Below the pieces are notes generated by a model. The model was not told the DNA's origin and did not search any database. It saw only the letters and a program-made list of their open reading frames with translations. This document shows, one piece after another, positions 53,218-59,611 of a stretch of 64,000 nt of DNA. Each line of letters starts with the position of its first letter. The first letter of the stretch is position 1. Origin of the DNA: Escherichia phage vB_Eco_mar004NP2. The stretch lies in the sequence record OR896837.1, one strand, 5' to 3'. Position numbers and translations under genes: made by a program.

Positions 53218-54975
53218 TTAGGTAAGGCGTTGAACTGTTACTCTTAATCTCGGTAGGAAAACTGCACTACCTAAACTTACGTGCATAACTACCCCTAACT
53301 CTACATTTCCATTCCCCAGATTTTTAGCAGTATATATAAAACTATTTCTACTTAGGGCATTGTTAGGTGTGTACCTAAAAGCAGATGTAGTATGAAAAGG
53401 TACTAAATACCCTACTGGTAATGTTAAAATCTGGTGGAATATTGCATCTCCATTACTATAGCTATATGCTCTTCTTCCTTGCACTTGAAACACACCGTTA
53501 TTCCATGTATTAGCAGGAACACCTGCACAGTTAAGGTTACCTGATATAACTTCAGTGGTAAGAATTACTGTAGCATTGCCACCCGGTATACCTAGCCCAA
53601 TAGTTGATAAACCAACGTATCTATCCCCTGTTCCCGGGTAGCTGGGAGTAATATCATCCCCCATGTAAGAGCTACCTACATTTCCACCAAAAAGTCGTAA
53701 TGGAACTGCTGATGGTCCCCAAACAACCCCGTGTTCATTACCGATAGTATTATCCCTAGAGTTTACATACCATTGCTTACCCGCTCCGAATTTGTAAATG
53801 CTAATTTGGGATTTAGCTCCACCATAGTCTACAGGAGACCATAATCCTCCATTACTAGACCCTACAAGTTCACACCTTGCCGTGGTATCCCCAAAAACCC
53901 CGGTATACGCTGCGTTATTTCCTATATACTCCATATCAGGACGGTAACCTAGGTTACCAAAAGCATTCTGATTTATAAATTTATACCCGGTATTAGGGAG
54001 ACTTACCCCTTTAATTATGAAATTAGAAGGAGATATAAGAATATCAGAACCAGTAAAGGGGTTGCCTGAAATACTCATTCCACCATTAGAGTACCTTAAA
54101 TTAAGAACATACCAAATAACCTTAGTAGGGGTTATATTATACCAATCCTGTAGTATTGTAGAGTCACCCGACTGGTTAGCTAAATTAGTAGTAGATCCCC
54201 TACAAACAAATCTGTTCCCACCGTCGTGGTACATAGTATTTACATTACCTGGGAGCCCTTGTCTAACCCCACCGTATCCACGTATATTAGAGTTGCAAAC
54301 ATAAAACCAATCATGCCCTCTATGTGCTGCTCCTAGAGGCGACATCCATCCAGGATCCCAATAGTACGGGTTATTCCCATCTACAGGTACTGTGCTACTA
54401 TTAGTAGGAAAACCTAATTGTGCAAAGGCTTCTGCAACAGTAACACCTACAGGAGCTCCCGCACCAGGCCTAACTATCCCATGGTAGGTACTATGTAACG
54501 TAGTACCACCTGTACCACTCCTAGAGATAGATTCTTCGTGCCATATCGATGGGTTATAATTATAAGTTCCAGATGCTAGACTATTACCAAATGCAAATCC
54601 ACTGGTTTGAGAAACACTAGCAAAAGATCTAAAGGGGTCTGCTTGAGTGGCAACTATAGTTTGACCAACTTTACTCTGAGTACCATTAAGAAAAGCTCTG
54701 TGAGTACCATTAATCTCAATAGCAGTTAGTATAACTCTACCAGGATCATTAGATTTAATATTTACTATATCAGGAGGCATCTGACATACGAAAAACCCAT
54801 TCCCGGCATCACCTAATCCTGCCTCATAAGTACCCTCAACTAGAACAAATGGCATATCACTATGAAAAATACTATTATTACTTGGACTATAGTGACGATT
54901 AATGTCACCCCCAGATTCAGTATTTAAAGATAGTACGGTCTTACCATCGCTATACTTTCCAGCGAAAAAACCCAT
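53218..54975 (-). CDS. Receptor-binding tail protein (T5 pb5/Oad-like)
   Basis: 585 aa, divergent from the adjacent lipoprotein gene as oad/llp are in T5. Confidence 0.6.
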
Positions 54976-55000
54976 ATAATCTCCTATTATAAAAATGTAT

Positions 55001-55029
55001 TTGCTTTCATCCCTCTATTTTGCTATAAT
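55001..55029 (+). promoter_or_regulatory. sigma70-type promoter for the llp-like gene
   Basis: TTGCTT 55001-55006, 17-nt spacer, TATAAT 55024-55029, conserved leader aattcataaattagaaatggagag. Confidence 0.5.
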
Positions 55030-55060
55030 AAATTCATAAATTAGAAATGGAGAGATAAAT

Positions 55061-55327
55061 ATGAAAAAGTTTGTAATTGCACTAGTTGCCACAGTTATAT
55101 TATCTGGTTGTGTACCTGCTCCCAAACCATTTTGTACGGGATTTGTAAAATCTTTTGGTGGTGCGGGAGAAGAATATTACGGTCTCAAGGTTCAAAAAGT
55201 TCGTATTAAGGGAGATCGCTTTCCAGTAGTACAGCTCCGTACTAAATTTGGGTGGTGGGATCTCAGTCAGTTTGACCTTAAATATGGTGATTGTAAATTT
55301 AAACTAGAGCAATCTAATTACCTGTAA
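55061..55327 (+). CDS. llp: Lipoprotein, Llp-like (receptor-blocking superinfection-exclusion protein)
   Basis: Signal peptide with lipobox ILSGC; 88 aa; divergent from the receptor-binding protein gene. Confidence 0.65.
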   Translation: MKKFVIALVATVILSGCVPAPKPFCTGFVKSFGGAGEEYYGLKVQKVRIKGDRFPVVQLRTKFGWWDLSQFDLKYGDCKFKLEQSNYL

Positions 55328-55494
55328 TTAGTATAAAACAAAAAGACATCCAAGTAAACTAAATTTTTTATTTCTTGGATGGTATATTGGCAGAAACCAC
55401 TATGTAAGAAAAGTAGAAGTCCTTCTAGGAGTCCACAAGCACGGTTGGTTATGCACATATTTTAAAATATCACATTTATGGGAGCACGAAAGAT

Positions 55495-55623
55495 ATGTCA
55501 AACAAAAGAAATAATAGACGCGGAGAGGTGTATGAGAGTTGGATAAATAGTTTTGGGTTCGGAACTCTCCTATTCTTTATTTTCGTAGGTTTTTGGTTAG
55601 CAGCTATGGCGGGGTGGATTTAA
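55495..55623 (+). CDS. Small membrane protein (42 aa), first of four overlapping tiny genes
   Basis: Own translation MSNKRNNRRGEVYESWINSFGFGTLLFFIFVGFWLAAMAGWI; ggag 10 nt upstream; below ORF-track size cut-off. Confidence 0.3.
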   Translation: MSNKRNNRRGEVYESWINSFGFGTLLFFIFVGFWLAAMAGWI

Positions 55624-55730
55624 TGGAATGGGTAATTATTGCACTATTAGGGATTGTGATTATTGGGCAATGTATTTTAGATAATCACTTAGCTAGAATT
55701 GAAACTTTATTGCTGGAGAAACGTAAATGA
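55623..55730 (+). CDS. Small membrane protein (35 aa)
   Basis: Own translation MEWVIIALLGIVIIGQCILDNHLARIETLLLEKRK; TAATG overlap with upstream stop. Confidence 0.25.
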   Translation: MEWVIIALLGIVIIGQCILDNHLARIETLLLEKRK

Positions 55731-55921
55731 TGGAAGTGGCAGCTACATTAATAGTAATATTAATCTGGGCAATTTTCATTGTTTCTTATACCGCGTATGT
55801 TCGCCTAAAAACTCTAGAGGCCCAGGTAAAGCAGCAACAATTTGCACTAGAAAAATTAGTAGAGCTTCAACGCTGTGATAGTACCCGTATTCTGCAAATT
55901 GAGAGGGAATTAGATGTTTAG
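55727..55921 (+). CDS. Small single-pass membrane protein (64 aa)
   Basis: ORF track; N-terminal TM helix then coiled-coil-like tail; ATGA overlap with upstream gene. Confidence 0.45.
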   Translation: MMEVAATLIVILIWAIFIVSYTAYVRLKTLEAQVKQQQFALEKLVELQRCDSTRILQIERELDV

Positions 55922-56159
55922 TATTGTAATTGCTTTTATTATCGGGATACTCGCGGGAGTTTTCGGGACGACTGCGGCAATCAATAAGCATCGTAAATAT
56001 ATTGCGGGAGTGACGCGGGAGATTGCGGAAAGGGAGCGGAAGTTTGACGAGAAACGTGCGGAGTTTGAGCGGGAGTGGTCGGATGGATCTCGGGCGTCGC
56101 GGAAGAGATTCCGTGAGTTCAGACCAGAATACAGGTTTGATGACCCTTCTATGCGCTAA
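55914..56159 (+). CDS. Small single-pass membrane protein (81 aa) with Arg/Glu-rich tail
   Basis: ORF track; N-terminal TM helix; 3' end lies in the first copy of the 76-bp tandem repeat. Confidence 0.45.
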   Translation: MFSIVIAFIIGILAGVFGTTAAINKHRKYIAGVTREIAERERKFDEKRAEFEREWSDGSRASRKRFREFRPEYRFDDPSMR

Positions 56160-56264
56160 TTTGACTTTTGCCAATTTCTTTGGATTACGTGAGTTCAGAC
56201 CAGAATACAGGTTTGATGACCCTTCTATGCGCTAATTTGACTTTTGCCAATTTCTTTGGATTAC
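56113..56264. repeat. Perfect 76-bp tandem duplication (2 copies)
   Basis: 56113-56188 is identical to 56189-56264. Confidence 0.95.
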
Positions 56265-56336
56265 GTACGCGTGGGTGTGTCCAGTGGCCCCCCAGATGAG
56301 AATGAGTCTCATTACCGCCCGGTACTTAGCAGGCTA

Positions 56337-56373
56337 ATAGTCACGGCATGGTATCATTACACACCGTGACTAT
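56337..56373. terminator. Hairpin between convergent genes (possible terminator)
   Basis: 10-bp stem atagtcacgg / ccgtgactat with 17-nt loop; flanking U-tract weak. Confidence 0.3.
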
Positions 56374-56387
56374 TTCAACTTTAATTG

Positions 56388-57122
56388 TTAGGCAACTTTT
56401 AATTTCTCAATATATTGTTGAGGACTGCAACTATATTCTGCGCGTTCTTCCTCGGTCATACCTTCCCAGCATAATTTTAAACGGTCAGCTAGGAATTGAT
56501 AATCATTATCATCGTCGAGAGATTCATCAATAAAGGTTTCACCTATCAATGCCACGCCGATTGATAGAATATCATTAACGGCTTGTGCGTCCAGCGTTTT
56601 AAATCCGTATGACGCTGCCGCTGATAGCACGCCTTTATGATCATCAATCATTGTAAAATCAGCGTTAGGATATAACTGTTTAAATAATTCAAAATAATAA
56701 GATTTATATACTGCGTCTTTGCTGTGGTATATTTCGCTAACCTTATCAGCTTTAAAATATTTGTGTAGTGTATCGCGGGAAAATACGCGGATATTACTAT
56801 TACCACGACCGCGCAACCCTTGTTTACGCAAGAAATAATAGTCCGACTTACTCATCAGTCGAGCGGTGCAAATAATGTTTAAAGTATTTGCGTCATTCAT
56901 GCACTGGCGCATATATTCAACCAATGGCAATAAAGTATCTTGCATTATTAAATGGTGTTTACACGCTTCATTTTTATACTTATTTAAATCTAAATTGCCC
57001 TCGCTATCAAAGCAGGGTGCTATACGATGGAAAGAATTAATGATAGTGCCGTCTAAATCCCAAATCATGACGCGGGAAATATGCGGGAAGCTGCGGGAAA
57101 GATTCATGATAGCTTTATTCAT
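56388..57122 (-). CDS. dmp: HAD-family 5'-deoxyribonucleotidase (T5 Dmp-like)
   Basis: 244 aa; HAD motif I WDLDGTI near N-terminus; sits in a pre-early-type module with A1/A2-like genes. Confidence 0.7.
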   Translation of the reverse strand: MNKAIMNLSRSFPHISRVMIWDLDGTIINSFHRIAPCFDSEGNLDLNKYKNEACKHHLIMQDTLLPLVEYMRQCMNDANTLNIICTARLMSKSDYYFLRKQGLRGRGNSNIRVFSRDTLHKYFKADKVSEIYHSKDAVYKSYYFELFKQLYPNADFTMIDDHKGVLSAAASYGFKTLDAQAVNDILSIGVALIGETFIDESLDDDNDYQFLADRLKLCWEGMTEEERAEYSCSPQQYIEKLKVA

Positions 57123-57946: not shown

Positions 57947-59611
57947 TTACGCAAAGAATTTACCGTTTTTAAAGTCAATCAAAGTGCGCTGACCGTTTGC
58001 ATAGGTAATTAAATGCGTTTGCGTCCAGCTTGACGCGCCAACGTTGTAACCCATGTCCAGACTACCAGCTACGCCAGCGGTATACACGCCGCCATAAATG
58101 CTGGCGGTGTGAGTGTGTCCGGTGTTTAATTTGCCCAATTTCTTAAATTGTTTAGGATTGCCACGGCTGCCGTTAATGCCGTTGTGACCGTGTACGCCGC
58201 ATTCAATGCCTACAATCTTGAAAGATTGGTCAGTAGTTAGAAAAATGGCGTTAAACTCACAACCTGCAACCTTGCGCAGCGCATAATCTAGCACGTTGAA
58301 AGTATCGTCTTTTTCTGCAATAGCTCCATAAATCGCGGCATTTAGGCGGTGATATAGTTCCGCGTTTGCTGGATCGTCTTTAATGTTAGCATTACGATCA
58401 TCAAGCCAACGGGATAGCGCCAAATCGTGATTAGATTCAACAATGATTGTTTGCGAGAAATCACGTTCCATTGATTCCAGCACGCGCCCCGTATCGATAA
58501 GATCATCTAATACCTTATCACGTCCGGCGGCGTATTGTTTTGCTAGGAATACACCGGATGCGCGGTTGTGATGGTTGCGTGATGTAAAATCATGCACGTC
58601 ATGGATAAACTGATATTTAGGCTTGAGAATATCAAGCAAGCTATTTTCGCCAGCCCATGACGCAACGGCACAATCATCATCTAGTTTTTCTGCGTGAATA
58701 TCGCCGTATTGCAAGCCTAAAACATGCCCCGATGTCTCATAGCATCCGGCAGGAGTAGCGCACACATTCAGATCATAAAATACCCCGCTTTCGTCCATCG
58801 TTTCGAGCTGGCGTACAAAAAATTCCCCGTCCTCGTCGAACTCGACAATTAGCGCACCGAAGTTATGCAGCGCCTCGGCCTTTTGTCCTGCTTTCTGCTG
58901 AATGTAGTTTTTGAGCGTTGCCGTTCCGGTTGAGTACATACGGCGCACTACTTCACCTTTTAAAGCTGGCACGCTTTCAGCGGTAATTTTAGCGTGACCA
59001 ATTGCCAGACCTTCCAGATTAAGCGCCGTTGCAGTTTCAGCGAATCCAGAAAGCGGATAATCTGCGGTTGGCAAAACGTTAATTTCAGCCATGAAAGCAA
59101 AACGGCGGTTATTTAAAAACACGTTTTTATTGCAGATATATTTGTCAAATGCGGAATCATATTTTATTCCTTCTGCACCCTCGCCATTTTGAAAACCGTT
59201 TTTGTTATAAATAAACTTGCTAACCAGCAAATCAGCGCCGATATATTTAGCAAATTGCTCCAATGAGGCTAAAAAGTTTTTATGCGGGAAAGTATTATTC
59301 TGAATCGACGTAATAATAAAGCGTTTACCCTGCTTTACTTCCCATTGCTCAACCGTGCTAGAAACAATCCCCGCCGCTTCTGGACGCTCATCGTTTTTAA
59401 TGGCTTTTGCTACTTTCGCCGCTTTCGGTTTAGCTGGTTTATTTGCTTCCAACCAGTCGCAGATAGCGGTCGAGTGTTTTGTTGTATCGTAGACCGCTTT
59501 TGATATATCGTCGCAGACCTCCAGTTTAGTAGCGCGCAGACGTTTACCATAGAAATTAAAGTCAGCGGCCATTTTCAGGATAACGGTTTGTTTTTCTGTG
59601 GAAATAATCAT
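57947..59611 (-). CDS. A1: A1-like pre-early protein (metallophosphoesterase-type nuclease-like)
   Basis: 554 aa; calcineurin-like motifs GDIHAEKLDD, VESNHD, GHTHTA; size close to T5 A1 from memory. Confidence 0.7.
   Translation of the reverse strand: MIISTEKQTVILKMAADFNFYGKRLRATKLEVCDDISKAVYDTTKHSTAICDWLEANKPAKPKAAKVAKAIKNDERPEAAGIVSSTVEQWEVKQGKRFIITSIQNNTFPHKNFLASLEQFAKYIGADLLVSKFIYNKNGFQNGEGAEGIKYDSAFDKYICNKNVFLNNRRFAFMAEINVLPTADYPLSGFAETATALNLEGLAIGHAKITAESVPALKGEVVRRMYSTGTATLKNYIQQKAGQKAEALHNFGALIVEFDEDGEFFVRQLETMDESGVFYDLNVCATPAGCYETSGHVLGLQYGDIHAEKLDDDCAVASWAGENSLLDILKPKYQFIHDVHDFTSRNHHNRASGVFLAKQYAAGRDKVLDDLIDTGRVLESMERDFSQTIIVESNHDLALSRWLDDRNANIKDDPANAELYHRLNAAIYGAIAEKDDTFNVLDYALRKVAGCEFNAIFLTTDQSFKIVGIECGVHGHNGINGSRGNPKQFKKLGKLNTGHTHTASIYGGVYTAGVAGSLDMGYNVGASSWTQTHLITYANGQRTLIDFKNGKFFA

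Follow-up and report, generated by a model that had tools for sequence, protein, structure and literature searches.

Between the late genes and the right terminal repeat of a T5-like phage genome lie four very short, overlapping open reading frames. This locus raises the question of whether the frames are genuine genes and, if so, what their products could do in the infected cell. The window, that is the whole stretch of DNA analysed, comprises 64,000 nt of Escherichia phage vB_Eco_mar004NP2 (OR896837.1); it derives from a T5-like phage (Tequintavirus), with 99.9% identity to both Salmonella phage SPLA5b and Escherichia phage Baret. A preliminary description made from the sequence alone had reported four consecutive plus-strand frames of 42, 35, 64 and 81 codons (here ORF1 to ORF4) and had placed them at the junction of the late genes and the terminal repeat. 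Both points proved correct: llp and a receptor-binding protein gene are situated to the left of the frames, dmp and A1 to the right. The features of the locus are listed below with their positions in the window.

53218..54975, minus strand: receptor-binding tail protein gene (pb5-type, 585 aa; from the ORF list), divergent from llp
55001..55029, plus strand: putative sigma-70 promoter of the llp unit (TTGCTT, 17-nt spacer, TGcTATAAT with extended -10)
55061..55327, plus strand: llp, which opens the cluster and encodes a Cor-type receptor-blocking lipoprotein of 88 aa with the lipobox LSG|C
55347..55381: inverted repeat in the llp-ORF1 spacer (11-nt arms, 13-nt loop)
55495..55623, plus strand: ORF1, 42 aa, assigned to T5.159 (phrog_8596, E = 2.4e-30, full length)
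55623..55730, plus strand: ORF2, 35 aa, assigned to T5.160 (phrog_6369, E = 1.7e-25)
55727..55921, plus strand: ORF3, 64 aa, assigned to T5.161 (phrog_5851, E = 1.9e-34)
55914..56159, plus strand: ORF4, 81 aa, assigned to T5.162 (phrog_6447 "membrane protein", E = 2.6e-47)
56107..56266: tandem duplication of a 76-bp unit (2.1 copies), taking in the final 15 codons of ORF4 and a further 29 nt
56278..56372: interval in which the right terminal repeat starts (near 56278 going by T5 homology, near 56372 in the chee24 annotation)
56336..56374: inverted repeat between ORF4 and dmp with perfect 11-bp arms around a 17-nt loop; it probably terminates the convergent units
56388..57122, minus strand: dmp, for a 5'-deoxyribonucleotidase, with which the pre-early genes of the terminal repeat begin; it converges on ORF4
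57947-59611, minus strand: A1, in the terminal repeat, right flank

ORF1 to ORF4 are almost certainly the orthologues of the phage T5 genes T5.159-T5.162 (AY543070), which are synonymous with T5p155-158 in AY692264 and with ORF148-151 in AY587007. The proteins are 88%, 94%, 84% and 88% identical to T5.159,.160,.161 and.162, respectively, and gene order, the overlaps of 1, 4 and 8 nt and the site between llp and the right terminal repeat are the same in both phages. Each of the four is also 100% identical to an annotated CDS of phage Baret. These genes are therefore already known: they have long been annotated in T5, where GenBank labels them "hypothetical protein; contains single transmembrane domain", and the genome scan only re-identifies hypothetical genes. 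No mention of T5p155-158 or T5.159-162 was found in the searchable literature, and the papers on phiR2-01, on the Llp structure, on two-step injection of T5 DNA and on HIDEN-SEQ do not treat them. In contrast to the four frames, the upstream llp gene differs from that of T5, since its Cor-type product of 88 aa has no detectable similarity to T5 Llp.

The product of llp matched the Cor superinfection exclusion protein family phrog_1119 (E = 7e-24) as well as the Pfam lipid attachment site LPAM_1 (22.3 bits, cut-off 20), neither of which matched any of ORF1-4, and its dN/dS is 0.23. A receptor-binding protein is annotated at the syntenic place in chee24, Baret and NBSal005, and dmp is annotated as such in T5, chee24 and mar004NP2. 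According to the T5 annotation the terminal repeat begins 42 nt past the stop codon of T5.162. With the T5-based and the chee24-based boundary alike (the phiR2-01 annotation was also used) ORF1-4 lie outside the repeat. Because the cluster is located in unique DNA ahead of the right terminal repeat, it would enter the cell only with the second step of DNA transfer.

The four frames are genuine, conserved and lineage-specific genes. In-frame dN/dS values were 0.14 for ORF1, 0.18 for ORF2 and 0.37 for both ORF3 and ORF4, compared with 0.68-2.16 in the two shifted frames. All four gave full-profile PHROG matches (E = 1.7e-25 to 2.6e-47), and in 34 loci from two genera the start and stop codons and the overlaps are conserved. 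Adjacent genes overlap by 1, 4 or 8 nt in every one of the 34 related loci irrespective of gene content, and still do so after the loss of ORF2 or ORF3 and after the gain of a paralogue. As to the overlaps here, the TAATG (1 nt) between ORF1 and ORF2 and the ATGA (4 nt) between ORF2 and ORF3 are as described, whereas ORF3 and ORF4 share 8 nt (ATGTTTAG). A Shine-Dalgarno-like motif can be read ahead of each of the four start codons, and that of ORF1 is conserved in the relatives. The view of the frames as genes that are coupled in translation and encode tiny proteins crossing the membrane once is thus upheld by selection, hydropathy and overlap conservation, and it agrees with the T5 annotation. 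A minus-strand ORF of 132 aa at 55776-56174 was also considered as a gene and was rejected because its antisense frame evolves neutrally (dN/dS 0.92-0.94).

Each of the four proteins contains one strongly hydrophobic segment of 17-24 residues with a mean Kyte-Doolittle value of 2.2-2.9. A single transmembrane segment per protein is indicated by hydropathy, by the notes in the T5 annotation and, for ORF4, by the helix of an AlphaFold2 model. The charges beside every hydrophobic segment obey the positive-inside rule, and it is on this rule, not on a dedicated predictor, that our topology is based. The proteins are probably single-pass inner-membrane proteins with their soluble parts in the cytoplasm, ORF1 being N-in and ORF2-4 N-out/C-in. 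For ORF2-4 a periplasmic exposure of 0-3 residues is predicted, and their cytoplasmic tails are predicted to be helical and look amphipathic or coiled-coil-like. For each of the frames it had been proposed that the protein opens with a hydrophobic helix and continues as a charged tail. This arrangement was found in ORF2-4; the hydropathy of ORF1 shows the reverse order.

ORF1 starts with a basic N-terminus (MSNKRNNRRGEVYESW) followed by a membrane helix that reaches the C-terminus, and is predicted to be tail-anchored, N-in and devoid of an extramembrane C-terminus. RGEVYESW is a conserved motif of this protein, and WLAAMAGW is invariant across 27 distinct ORF1 sequences. ORF2 consists of an N-terminal membrane helix and a short amphipathic tail (NHLARIETLL), ORF3 of an N-terminal membrane helix and a helical C-terminal part which is coiled-coil-like by eye only. 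The membrane helix of ORF4 runs on without a break into a charged cytoplasmic helix that extends to residue 68, and a variable disordered tail follows; the AlphaFold2 model consists of one helix over residues 2-68 with a mean pLDDT of 75. G11, G15, G18 and A22 of the membrane helix are invariant in the family alignment and, being spaced at i, i+4, i+7 and i+11, would share one helix face. The dN/dS of ORF4 is 0.25 over residues 1-67 and 0.21 over residues 25-67.

The locus is variable in content among the relatives through paralogue gain and homing-endonuclease insertions. ORF2 is missing from phiR2-01 and falkor, and an ORF2 paralogue of 51 aa is inserted in some relatives; on direct comparison no similarity was found between this paralogue and ORF3. 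ORF3 is the most dispensable of the four cluster members, being absent from 10 of the 34 loci and merely 42-43% identical in Epseptimavirus. A tblastn search of all phage records found ORF1 in 447 of them, in T5-like genomes only; dmp was found by tblastn in 908 Demerecviridae records. As judged from these searches the ORF1-4 family is restricted to the Markadamsvirinae (T5-like phages). A word-indexed search with ORF4 returned 82 clusters, apparently all T5-like; most were nameless, and the named matches all were T5-like phages or a Salmonella record. An exhaustive search of 1.84 billion proteins with the ORF4-family profile gave five representatives, all from the family itself. The profile search of the PDB returned noise alone, scans of the four proteins against Pfam, NCBIfam and PADLOC gave nothing above the cut-offs, and no similarity to exclusion or defence-related families was found in Pfam, PHROGs, NCBIfam or PADLOC.

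A comparable arrangement is seen in the Klebsiella Sugarlandvirus GlastoCabaret, which has mini-proteins of 74 aa and 153 aa encoded between the receptor-binding protein gene and dmp in the same orientation. They share the architecture of the cluster, in that a membrane helix at the N-terminus leads into a long charged helix. However, they have no significant sequence similarity to ORF1-4, the locus has two such genes where the T5-like cluster has four, and an llp-like lipoprotein gene is lacking.

ORF1-4 appear to be cotranscribed with llp, as suggested by the shared strand, the terminator scan, the T5 annotations and the transcript levels of phage Bas33. Upstream of ORF1 the consensus scan for promoters and terminators gave nothing convincing. 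It also missed the putative llp promoter because the -35 hexamer of the latter matches the consensus at three of six positions; the T5 records have the "putative early promoter T5P41" at the matching place. Between llp and ORF4 no terminator-like site exceeded the scan threshold on either strand. The inverted repeat in the llp-ORF1 spacer is conserved in Tequintavirus relatives and is followed by a T-run on the minus strand only. The repeat between ORF4 and dmp fell short of the simple terminator scan; at its counterpart in T5 a putative rho-independent terminator is annotated (AY587007). Altogether, the T5 records show only the llp ("early") promoter upstream of the cluster and a terminator after ORF151.

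In phage Bas33, llp and the cluster had similar transcript levels 20 min after infection (13-460 TPM). In the presence of daunorubicin, when only the DNA of the first transfer step is expressed, llp and the cluster yielded zero reads and the adjacent dmp was on. The cluster region of Bas33 is consequently transcribed after the second step of DNA transfer and is not pre-early. The counts per gene were erratic, with one or two reads for the two shortest genes (homologues of 108 nt and 129 nt) while the ORF4 homologue had 10-20-fold fewer reads than the genes beside it. The near-zero counts of the shortest genes are most simply explained as a counting artefact, these genes being shorter than a read.

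We considered several alternatives for the function of the cluster, among them the holin/antiholin/spanin sets and the small toxin modules named in the preliminary description. Lysis cassettes and ORF1-4 have in common that small membrane-anchored proteins are encoded by overlapping genes, and ORF3 weakly matches the Rz-like spanin family phrog_739 (E = 0.16). The likeness is superficial. The T5 lysis genes are complete elsewhere, with strong family matches: endolysin T5.040, holin T5.041 (phrog_860, E = 2e-77) and the two spanins T5.044 and T5.045 (matching Rz-like PHROGs with E = 3.5e-30 and, for T5.045 against phrog_739, 8e-38) map to 20-23 kb, some 90 kb away from the counterpart of ORF1-4, and a relative whose ORF1 is 100% identical annotates i-spanin, holin and endolysin elsewhere. 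The neighbours of ORF1-4 are llp and dmp and not an endolysin gene, and no holin family in PHROGs or Pfam matched them at E <= 1. No lipobox was found in the four proteins, the LSG|C of the locus being that of llp: ORF1 and ORF4 lack Cys altogether, ORF3 carries its single Cys in the tail, and in ORF2 (IIGQ|C) the only Cys is preceded by Gln at -1 and a basic n-region is absent. Nor is a periplasmic domain predicted. An inner-membrane spanin is N-in/C-out with a periplasmic coiled coil; ORF2-4 are predicted to be N-out/C-in. ORF1-4 are not the T5 lysis cassette, and that they form a holin/spanin set in their own right is exceedingly improbable. A subtler role in lysis would be that of antiholin-like timing regulators acting on the holin T5.041 from the cytoplasmic side. 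The T4 holin is controlled by small antiholins, one of which (RIII) works in the cytoplasm. The T5 holin (218 aa) is recorded as a single-transmembrane protein, the T5 spanin pair is of the T4 type (PseT.2/PseT.3-like), and the helical tails of ORF2-4 are predicted to be cytoplasmic, all of which would fit. Against this role stand the distance of about 90 kb from the lysis cassette and the noise-level scores with antiholin and lysis families, the match of ORF3 to the Rz-like spanin being accompanied by one to MS2 L with E = 0.086; we regard it as improbable. Small hydrophobic toxins, either type-I-toxin-like or host-killing peptides, are a still more doubtful reading. Size and hydrophobicity resemble those of membrane-depolarising peptides, and the basic N-terminus and hydrophobic C-terminus of ORF1 recall lysis proteins of the MS2 L type. 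However, no toxin family was matched in Pfam, NCBIfam or PADLOC, and Rfam gave no credible match over 54900-56500, known antisense and regulatory RNA families included. The genes form a coupled operon of conserved stoichiometric architecture and do not stand alone, and the constraint on residues 25-67 of ORF4 is stronger than a mere hydrophobic peptide needs. Finally, two of the frames are very short and their Bas33 homologues have RNA-seq counts of about zero, as might be expected of spurious ORFs or of a noncoding element at the repeat boundary. This reading is effectively refuted by the frame-specific purifying selection on all four, and the conserved starts, stops and overlaps in two genera also argue against it; with no Rfam match and a fold of the llp-ORF1 spacer no better than that of shuffled sequence (z = 0.03), its probability is negligible.

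A different possibility, unrelated to exclusion, is that ORF1-4 are host-takeover or anti-defence modulators that bind and tune host inner-membrane proteins. Targets could be a protease, a transporter, the machinery of division or of envelope stress, or else an abortive-infection system bound to the membrane, and the models would be the bacterial small membrane regulators AcrZ, MgtS, PspB, LapA and YhcB. The cluster shares the architecture of the bitopic envelope regulators (LapA domain, YhcB/ZapG, PspB, FtsL), namely an N-terminal membrane helix, N-out, followed by a charged or coiled-coil cytoplasmic helix. The faces of the membrane helices are highly conserved, and the locus is accessory and variable. 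ORF4 matched the LapA domain (PF06305) with E = 1.6e-4, as did 15 of 17 members of its family with E values of only 1.6e-4 to 0.01, and gave sub-threshold matches to FtsL (E = 0.03) and a ZapG-like family (E = 0.25); ORF3 matched PspB (TIGR02976) over nearly its full length, likewise below threshold (E = 0.19). All of these scores are under the curated cut-offs, the LapA match reaching 21.9 bits (Pfam gathering cut-off 28) and the PspB match 12 bits (NCBIfam cut-off 51.7), and PADLOC gave no matches. Homology of ORF4 to E. coli LapA was rejected in a direct comparison, as hhalign gave a probability of 0.3% and BLASTP no alignment. For ORF3 and ORF4 the resemblance is thus one of architecture at sub-threshold scores and not of demonstrated homology, and we consider this kind of modulator a rather unlikely explanation of the cluster.

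The reading that we favour, tentatively, is that of an accessory inner-membrane module coexpressed with Llp and serving superinfection exclusion or envelope takeover. The four proteins would be synthesised along with Llp, driven by the llp promoter, would insert into the cytoplasmic membrane and would act through specific packing of their membrane helices, either among themselves or against a membrane protein of host or phage. The invariant G11/G15/G18/A22 of ORF4 and the invariant WLAAMAGW of ORF1 are consistent with such packing. In this accessory "lytic conversion" module, ORF1 and ORF4 would be the conserved core and ORF2 and ORF3 exchangeable adaptors. Its action at the inner membrane, independent of the receptor, would complement that of Llp, which acts at the outer membrane. 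The conservation of ORF1-4 in T5, whose Llp shares no homology with the Llp encoded here, speaks for independence from the receptor.

Superinfection exclusion at the membrane, also raised in the preliminary description, remains plausible because ORF1-4 sit in the putative llp transcription unit. With the Llp/Cor lipoproteins they share the strand, probably the transcription unit and the position beside the receptor-binding protein gene; in contrast to these lipoproteins, they carry neither signal peptide nor lipobox, and the prediction for them is an inner-membrane location with the tails in the cytoplasm. T4 Imm and HK97 gp15 are small phage-encoded inner-membrane exclusion proteins made during infection. 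They are our favoured functional model, but ORF1-4 have no sequence similarity to them and ORF2-4 expose almost nothing to the periplasm. Given the predicted exposure of ORF2-4, incoming phage proteins could be blocked only within the membrane or from the cytoplasmic side. A strict functional tie to Llp is weakened by the Sugarlandvirus mini-proteins, which occur without a lipoprotein gene.

A more specific version, which we regard as speculative and rather improbable, is that the four proteins form one inner-membrane complex via their conserved helix faces and constitute an unrecognised second, receptor-independent layer of "lytic conversion" that is produced along with Llp. Such a complex would either close the inner membrane to incoming phage DNA or mimic LapA/YhcB/PspB-like regulators and so reprogram the envelope. 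Some 450 sequenced T5-like phages would have this function in common, and Sugarlandvirus would have an analogous one. T5 is a classical model phage, and ORF1-4 adjoin the best-understood phage receptor-blocking gene. If the cluster is an exclusion or envelope-takeover module, a second layer would be added to the "lytic conversion" of T5. It would also be relevant to the design of therapeutic and biocontrol cocktails of T5-like phages, where cross-exclusion among related phages matters.

The apparent 76-bp duplication at the 3' end of ORF4 is a peculiarity of the phage analysed here. It is absent from T5, and it was likewise found neither in Baret, chee24 and HildyBeyeler nor in any record of the phage collection. 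Although it takes in the last codons of ORF4, the duplication leaves the ORF4 protein unchanged.

At the late / pre-early junction of the window, four overlapping plus-strand open reading frames (ORF1–ORF4) of 42, 35, 64, and 81 codons had been noticed in a preliminary description. Their positions and lengths were confirmed, as follows.

53218-54975, minus strand: receptor-binding tail protein gene, 585 aa, left flank
55061-55327, plus strand: llp, gene of an 88-aa lipoprotein, divergent from the receptor-binding protein gene
55495-55623, plus strand: ORF1, 42 aa
55623-55730, plus strand: ORF2, 35 aa
55727-55921, plus strand: ORF3, 64 aa
55914-56159, plus strand: ORF4, 81 aa
56388-57122, minus strand: dmp, pre-early gene of the terminal repeat, right flank, convergent with ORF1–4
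57947-59611, minus strand: A1, pre-early gene of the terminal repeat, right flank

The flanks show the typical T5 arrangement, with the receptor-binding protein gene and llp on the left and, on the right, dmp and A1, with which the pre-early genes of the terminal repeat begin; therefore the term late / pre-early junction is correct. The repeat starts at about 56278 by homology to the T5 annotation and at about 56372 by the chee24 annotation, and under either placement ORF1–4 lie in unique DNA outside the repeat. Of the TAATG and ATGA overlaps that had been claimed, TAATG (1 nt) is found between ORF1 and ORF2 and ATGA (4 nt) between ORF2 and ORF3, whereas ORF3 and ORF4 share 8 nt (ATGTTTAG). 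By reading, a purine-rich Shine-Dalgarno-like motif precedes each start (GGGAG, GGTGGA, GGAG, and GAGAGGGA for ORF1 to ORF4, respectively).

Homologues were located by tblastn in 34 related loci, which were drawn from GenBank phages and from IMG/VR with some genomes represented in both, and dN/dS was obtained from summed Nei-Gojobori estimates. The in-frame values were 0.14 for ORF1, 0.18 for ORF2, and 0.37 for both ORF3 and ORF4 (0.25 for the conserved residues 1-67 of ORF4). The two shifted plus-strand frames gave 0.68-2.16 and the antisense frames 0.92-1.17, except for the frame sharing third codon positions with the sense frame (0.47-0.53). A 132-aa minus-strand ORF (55776-56174) was rejected as a gene because the dN/dS of its frame is 0.92-0.94. 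In all 34 loci each gene overlaps the next by 1, 4, or 8 nt. This chain is kept in the 10 loci lacking ORF3 (in nine of them ORF2 and ORF4 overlap by 1 nt), in phiR2-01 without ORF2, in falkor without both ORF2 and ORF3, and in four loci with an inserted 51-aa paralogue of ORF2. The paralogue (pairwise E = 1e-6 to ORF2) lies between ORF1 and ORF2 with 1-nt overlaps on either side in some Tequintavirus phages, namely NBSal005 (locus L006, 1644-1799), HildyBeyeler/Bas33 (locus L011, 1643-1798), and locus L024. The start codon of ORF1 and its AGGAG motif are conserved, the Epseptimavirus protein beginning MSDDNRRK. Each of the four proteins has a full-length match to a PHROG family (E = 2e-25 to 3e-47) and a counterpart of 100% identity among the annotated CDSs of phage Baret. 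Judged by these comparisons ORF1–4 are real genes.

The orthologues in T5 are T5p155-158 (AY692264), identical with T5.159-T5.162 (AY543070) and ORF148-151 (AY587007); the identities are 88, 94, 84, and 88% for ORF1 to ORF4. In AY543070 each is noted as 'hypothetical protein; contains single transmembrane domain'. The preliminary observation, essentially correct, repeats this annotation almost verbatim, and the feature was already known, long annotated in T5 and in hundreds of relatives. The T5 gene names gave no full-text literature matches, and the orthologues are not discussed in the papers on T5 Llp, T5 two-step injection, and phage phiR2-01.

Over the 1.1 kb around ORF1–4, identity is 99.7-99.9% with Salmonella phages SPLA5b and PMBT29 and with Escherichia phages vB_Eco_mar004NP2 and Baret; a near-mode search with this stretch matched 345 records of T5-like phages, a distant-mode search 446. 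ORF1 was found in 447 phage records, all T5-like with genomes of 100-123 kb. For ORF4 a word-indexed search returned 82 clusters, the named ones all being T5-like phages or Salmonella records, and an exhaustive profile search of 1.84 billion representatives gave five matches, all of the same family. Set beside the neighbouring dmp, which occurs in 908 Demerecviridae records, these searches indicate that the cluster is specific to Markadamsvirinae. Proteus Novosibvirus and Vibrio relatives encode soluble proteins at this position. Between its receptor-binding protein gene and dmp, the Klebsiella Sugarlandvirus GlastoCabaret (locus L039, 4341-5030) encodes a 74-aa and a 153-aa protein, which share the ORF3/ORF4 architecture of an N-terminal membrane helix and a charged helix but are non-homologous to ORF1–4; no lipoprotein gene is present there.

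The 88-aa lipoprotein, which carries a lipid attachment site, matches phrog_1119, the family of Cor superinfection-exclusion proteins (E = 7e-24). No tblastn match to llp was found in T5, and the receptor-binding protein has 585 aa compared with the 640 aa implied by the T5 oad coordinates, which suggests that the receptor module differs from the FhuA module of T5, ORF1–4 being conserved all the same. ORF1–4 remain 84-94% identical in T5, even though no similarity could be detected between T5 Llp and the lipoprotein of the window; their role is therefore independent of the outer-membrane receptor used by the phage.

The following sites were considered for expression and for sequence duplication.

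55001-55029, upstream of llp: putative extended -10 promoter (TTGCTT-17-TGcTATAAT), read from the sequence
55347-55381, llp–ORF1 spacer: hairpin with a T-run after it on the minus strand only (TCTTTTTGTTTT), conserved in Tequintavirus
56107-56266: 76-bp tandem duplication, 2.1 copies with one mismatch, comprising the last 15 ORF4 codons and 29 nt
56336-56374: perfect 11-bp inverted repeat, counterpart of the rho-independent terminator annotated in T5

Upstream of llp, at the corresponding position, the T5 records carry a promoter annotation (labelled 'putative early promoter T5P41' in AY587007); from llp to ORF148 they show no further promoter, and a rho-independent terminator is marked shortly after the right repeat begins. 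A consensus scan of both strands from llp to ORF4 yielded no terminator-like site and no convincing promoter before ORF1. The 167-nt llp–ORF1 spacer is conserved within Tequintavirus, with no significant fold (z = 0.03) and no Rfam match. As the T-run is confined to the minus strand, the hairpin looks like an intrinsic terminator of leftward transcripts from the repeat and not of the llp transcript. In Epseptimavirus the spacer has 348 nt and holds an annotated 104-aa ORF (L004 1762-2076, L007 1262-1576), which at its 3' end runs into the start of the ORF1 homologue, in a different frame. The locus has also been invaded by HNH homing-endonuclease genes. In falkor, which lacks ORF2 and ORF3 and has a GTG start in its ORF1 homologue, one (L010 967-1509) separates llp from ORF1; in HildyBeyeler one (L011 2377-2916) lies directly 3' of ORF4, ahead of the terminal repeat.

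Expression data exist for the Bas33 homologues, bas33_0187-0191. At 20 min post infection, with two replicates, llp had 1108/531 reads, the ORF2 paralogue 479/334 (137-162 TPM), ORF3 1704/1243, and ORF4 104/51, these genes ranging from 13 to 460 TPM (PMC13250531, Dataset S1). With daunorubicin, which limits expression to first-step-transfer DNA, the cluster had zero reads and the adjacent dmp stayed on (PMC13250531). The cluster is therefore transcribed, and not pre-early, in this relative. Only 1-2 reads were counted for the 108-nt and 129-nt genes (PMC13250531, Dataset S1), most likely a counting artefact of genes shorter than a read. Coverage of the co-directional bas33_0186-0192 was very uneven, ORF4 (104/51) standing between neighbours with 1704/1243 and 5363/3739 reads (PMC13250531, Dataset S1). 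We infer that ORF1–4 are co-transcribed with llp; they would be made together with Llp from the llp promoter.

A single hydrophobic segment, 17-24 residues long, is present in each protein, in line with the T5 annotation and with the single-pass membrane proteins proposed before. ORF2–4 open with this helix, as had been stated for all four, whereas ORF1 has a basic start (MSNKRNNRRGEVYESW) and its helix reaches the C-terminus. By the positive-inside rule ORF1 is predicted to be N-in and tail-anchored and ORF2–4 N-out/C-in with cytoplasmic tails, that is, bitopic inner-membrane proteins with cytoplasmic helices. In ORF1 the basic N-terminus is followed by a near-invariant RGEVY(E/D)SW and a helix ending in the invariant WLAAMAGW. 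The ORF2 helix precedes an invariant QC(I/V)LDNHLARIE. ORF3, only 42-43% identical in Epseptimavirus, continues into a helical tail, coiled-coil-like by reading, with a conserved ERELDV at the end. For ORF4, AlphaFold2 (17-sequence alignment) gave a continuous helix of residues 2-68 (mean pLDDT 75) and a tail of low confidence. G11, G15, G18, and A22 are invariant at spacing i, i+4, i+7, i+11, which would bring them to a single face of the membrane helix; invariance extends to much of the charged cytoplasmic helix. The tail after R67 (56112-56159, residues 67-81) is mosaic, at least five unrelated endings following directly after the conserved ...SRKRFR among relatives (e.g. L004, L007, L023, L030).

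A likeness to holin/antiholin/spanin sets had been suggested. The T5 lysis set is complete at 20-23 kb, with holin T5.041 (phrog_860, E = 2e-77), endolysin T5.040 (phrog_465, E = 1e-54), and the T4 PseT.2/PseT.3-like spanin pair T5.044 and T5.045 (phrog_812, E = 3.5e-30; phrog_739, E = 8e-38). SIA3lw, a close relative with an identical ORF1, has i-spanin, holin, and endolysin annotated in the same early region. ORF1–4 show neither a lipobox nor a predicted periplasmic domain, no endolysin gene adjoins them, and their best lysis-family scores are noise (ORF3 to an Rz-like spanin, E = 0.16, and to MS2 L, E = 0.086). A holin/spanin set is thus hardly credible, and an influence on lysis timing through the holin is unlikely. 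The small toxin module also proposed is very improbable, there being no toxin-family match. The four coupled, lineage-specific genes outside the repeat are transcribed after second-step transfer and are not a lysis cassette.

ORF1–4 may instead be an accessory module altering the inner membrane of the infected cell, with ORF1 and ORF4 as core and ORF2 and ORF3 exchangeable; the membrane segments would be so conserved because the proteins act by specific helix packing. We tentatively favour superinfection exclusion or envelope takeover at the inner membrane, as a layer that would not depend on the receptor and would complement Llp. The nearest rival, modulation of host membrane proteins or anti-defence, is conceivable though doubtful. 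Defence families gave no match. The recurrent but sub-threshold likenesses are to bitopic proteins of the same generic architecture: ORF4 to LapA_dom (E = 1.6e-4; 15 of 17 family members match), FtsL (0.03), and ZapG-like proteins (0.25), and ORF3 to PspB (0.19). The LapA lead failed direct comparison with E. coli LapA. The analysis added no evidence of an unusual mechanism, and the value of ORF1–4 is that, in a model phage, they make a target that is well defined and conserved but uncharacterised.

The ORF4 tail has its mosaic breakpoint exactly where the 76-bp duplicated unit starts. The duplication, which ends 12 bp ahead of the repeat start inferred from T5, was found neither in the 99.9%-identical relatives nor in any other record across the phage collection. 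In relatives without the duplication, an imperfect 8-nt direct repeat (GATTCCGT...GATTACGT) flanks the unit, pointing to slippage during replication and not to an assembly overlap. A 70-aa TTG ORF (56023-56235) sharing the ORF4 tail is spurious, created by the duplication. Within ORF4, a 14-nt direct repeat, GCGGGAG..(T/G)CGG, occurs in three copies (55953-56082, spacings of 62 and 54 nt). The natural variants P0072, P0074, and P0079 carry in-frame deletions and one duplication in the charged-helix region, consistent with repeat-mediated slippage.
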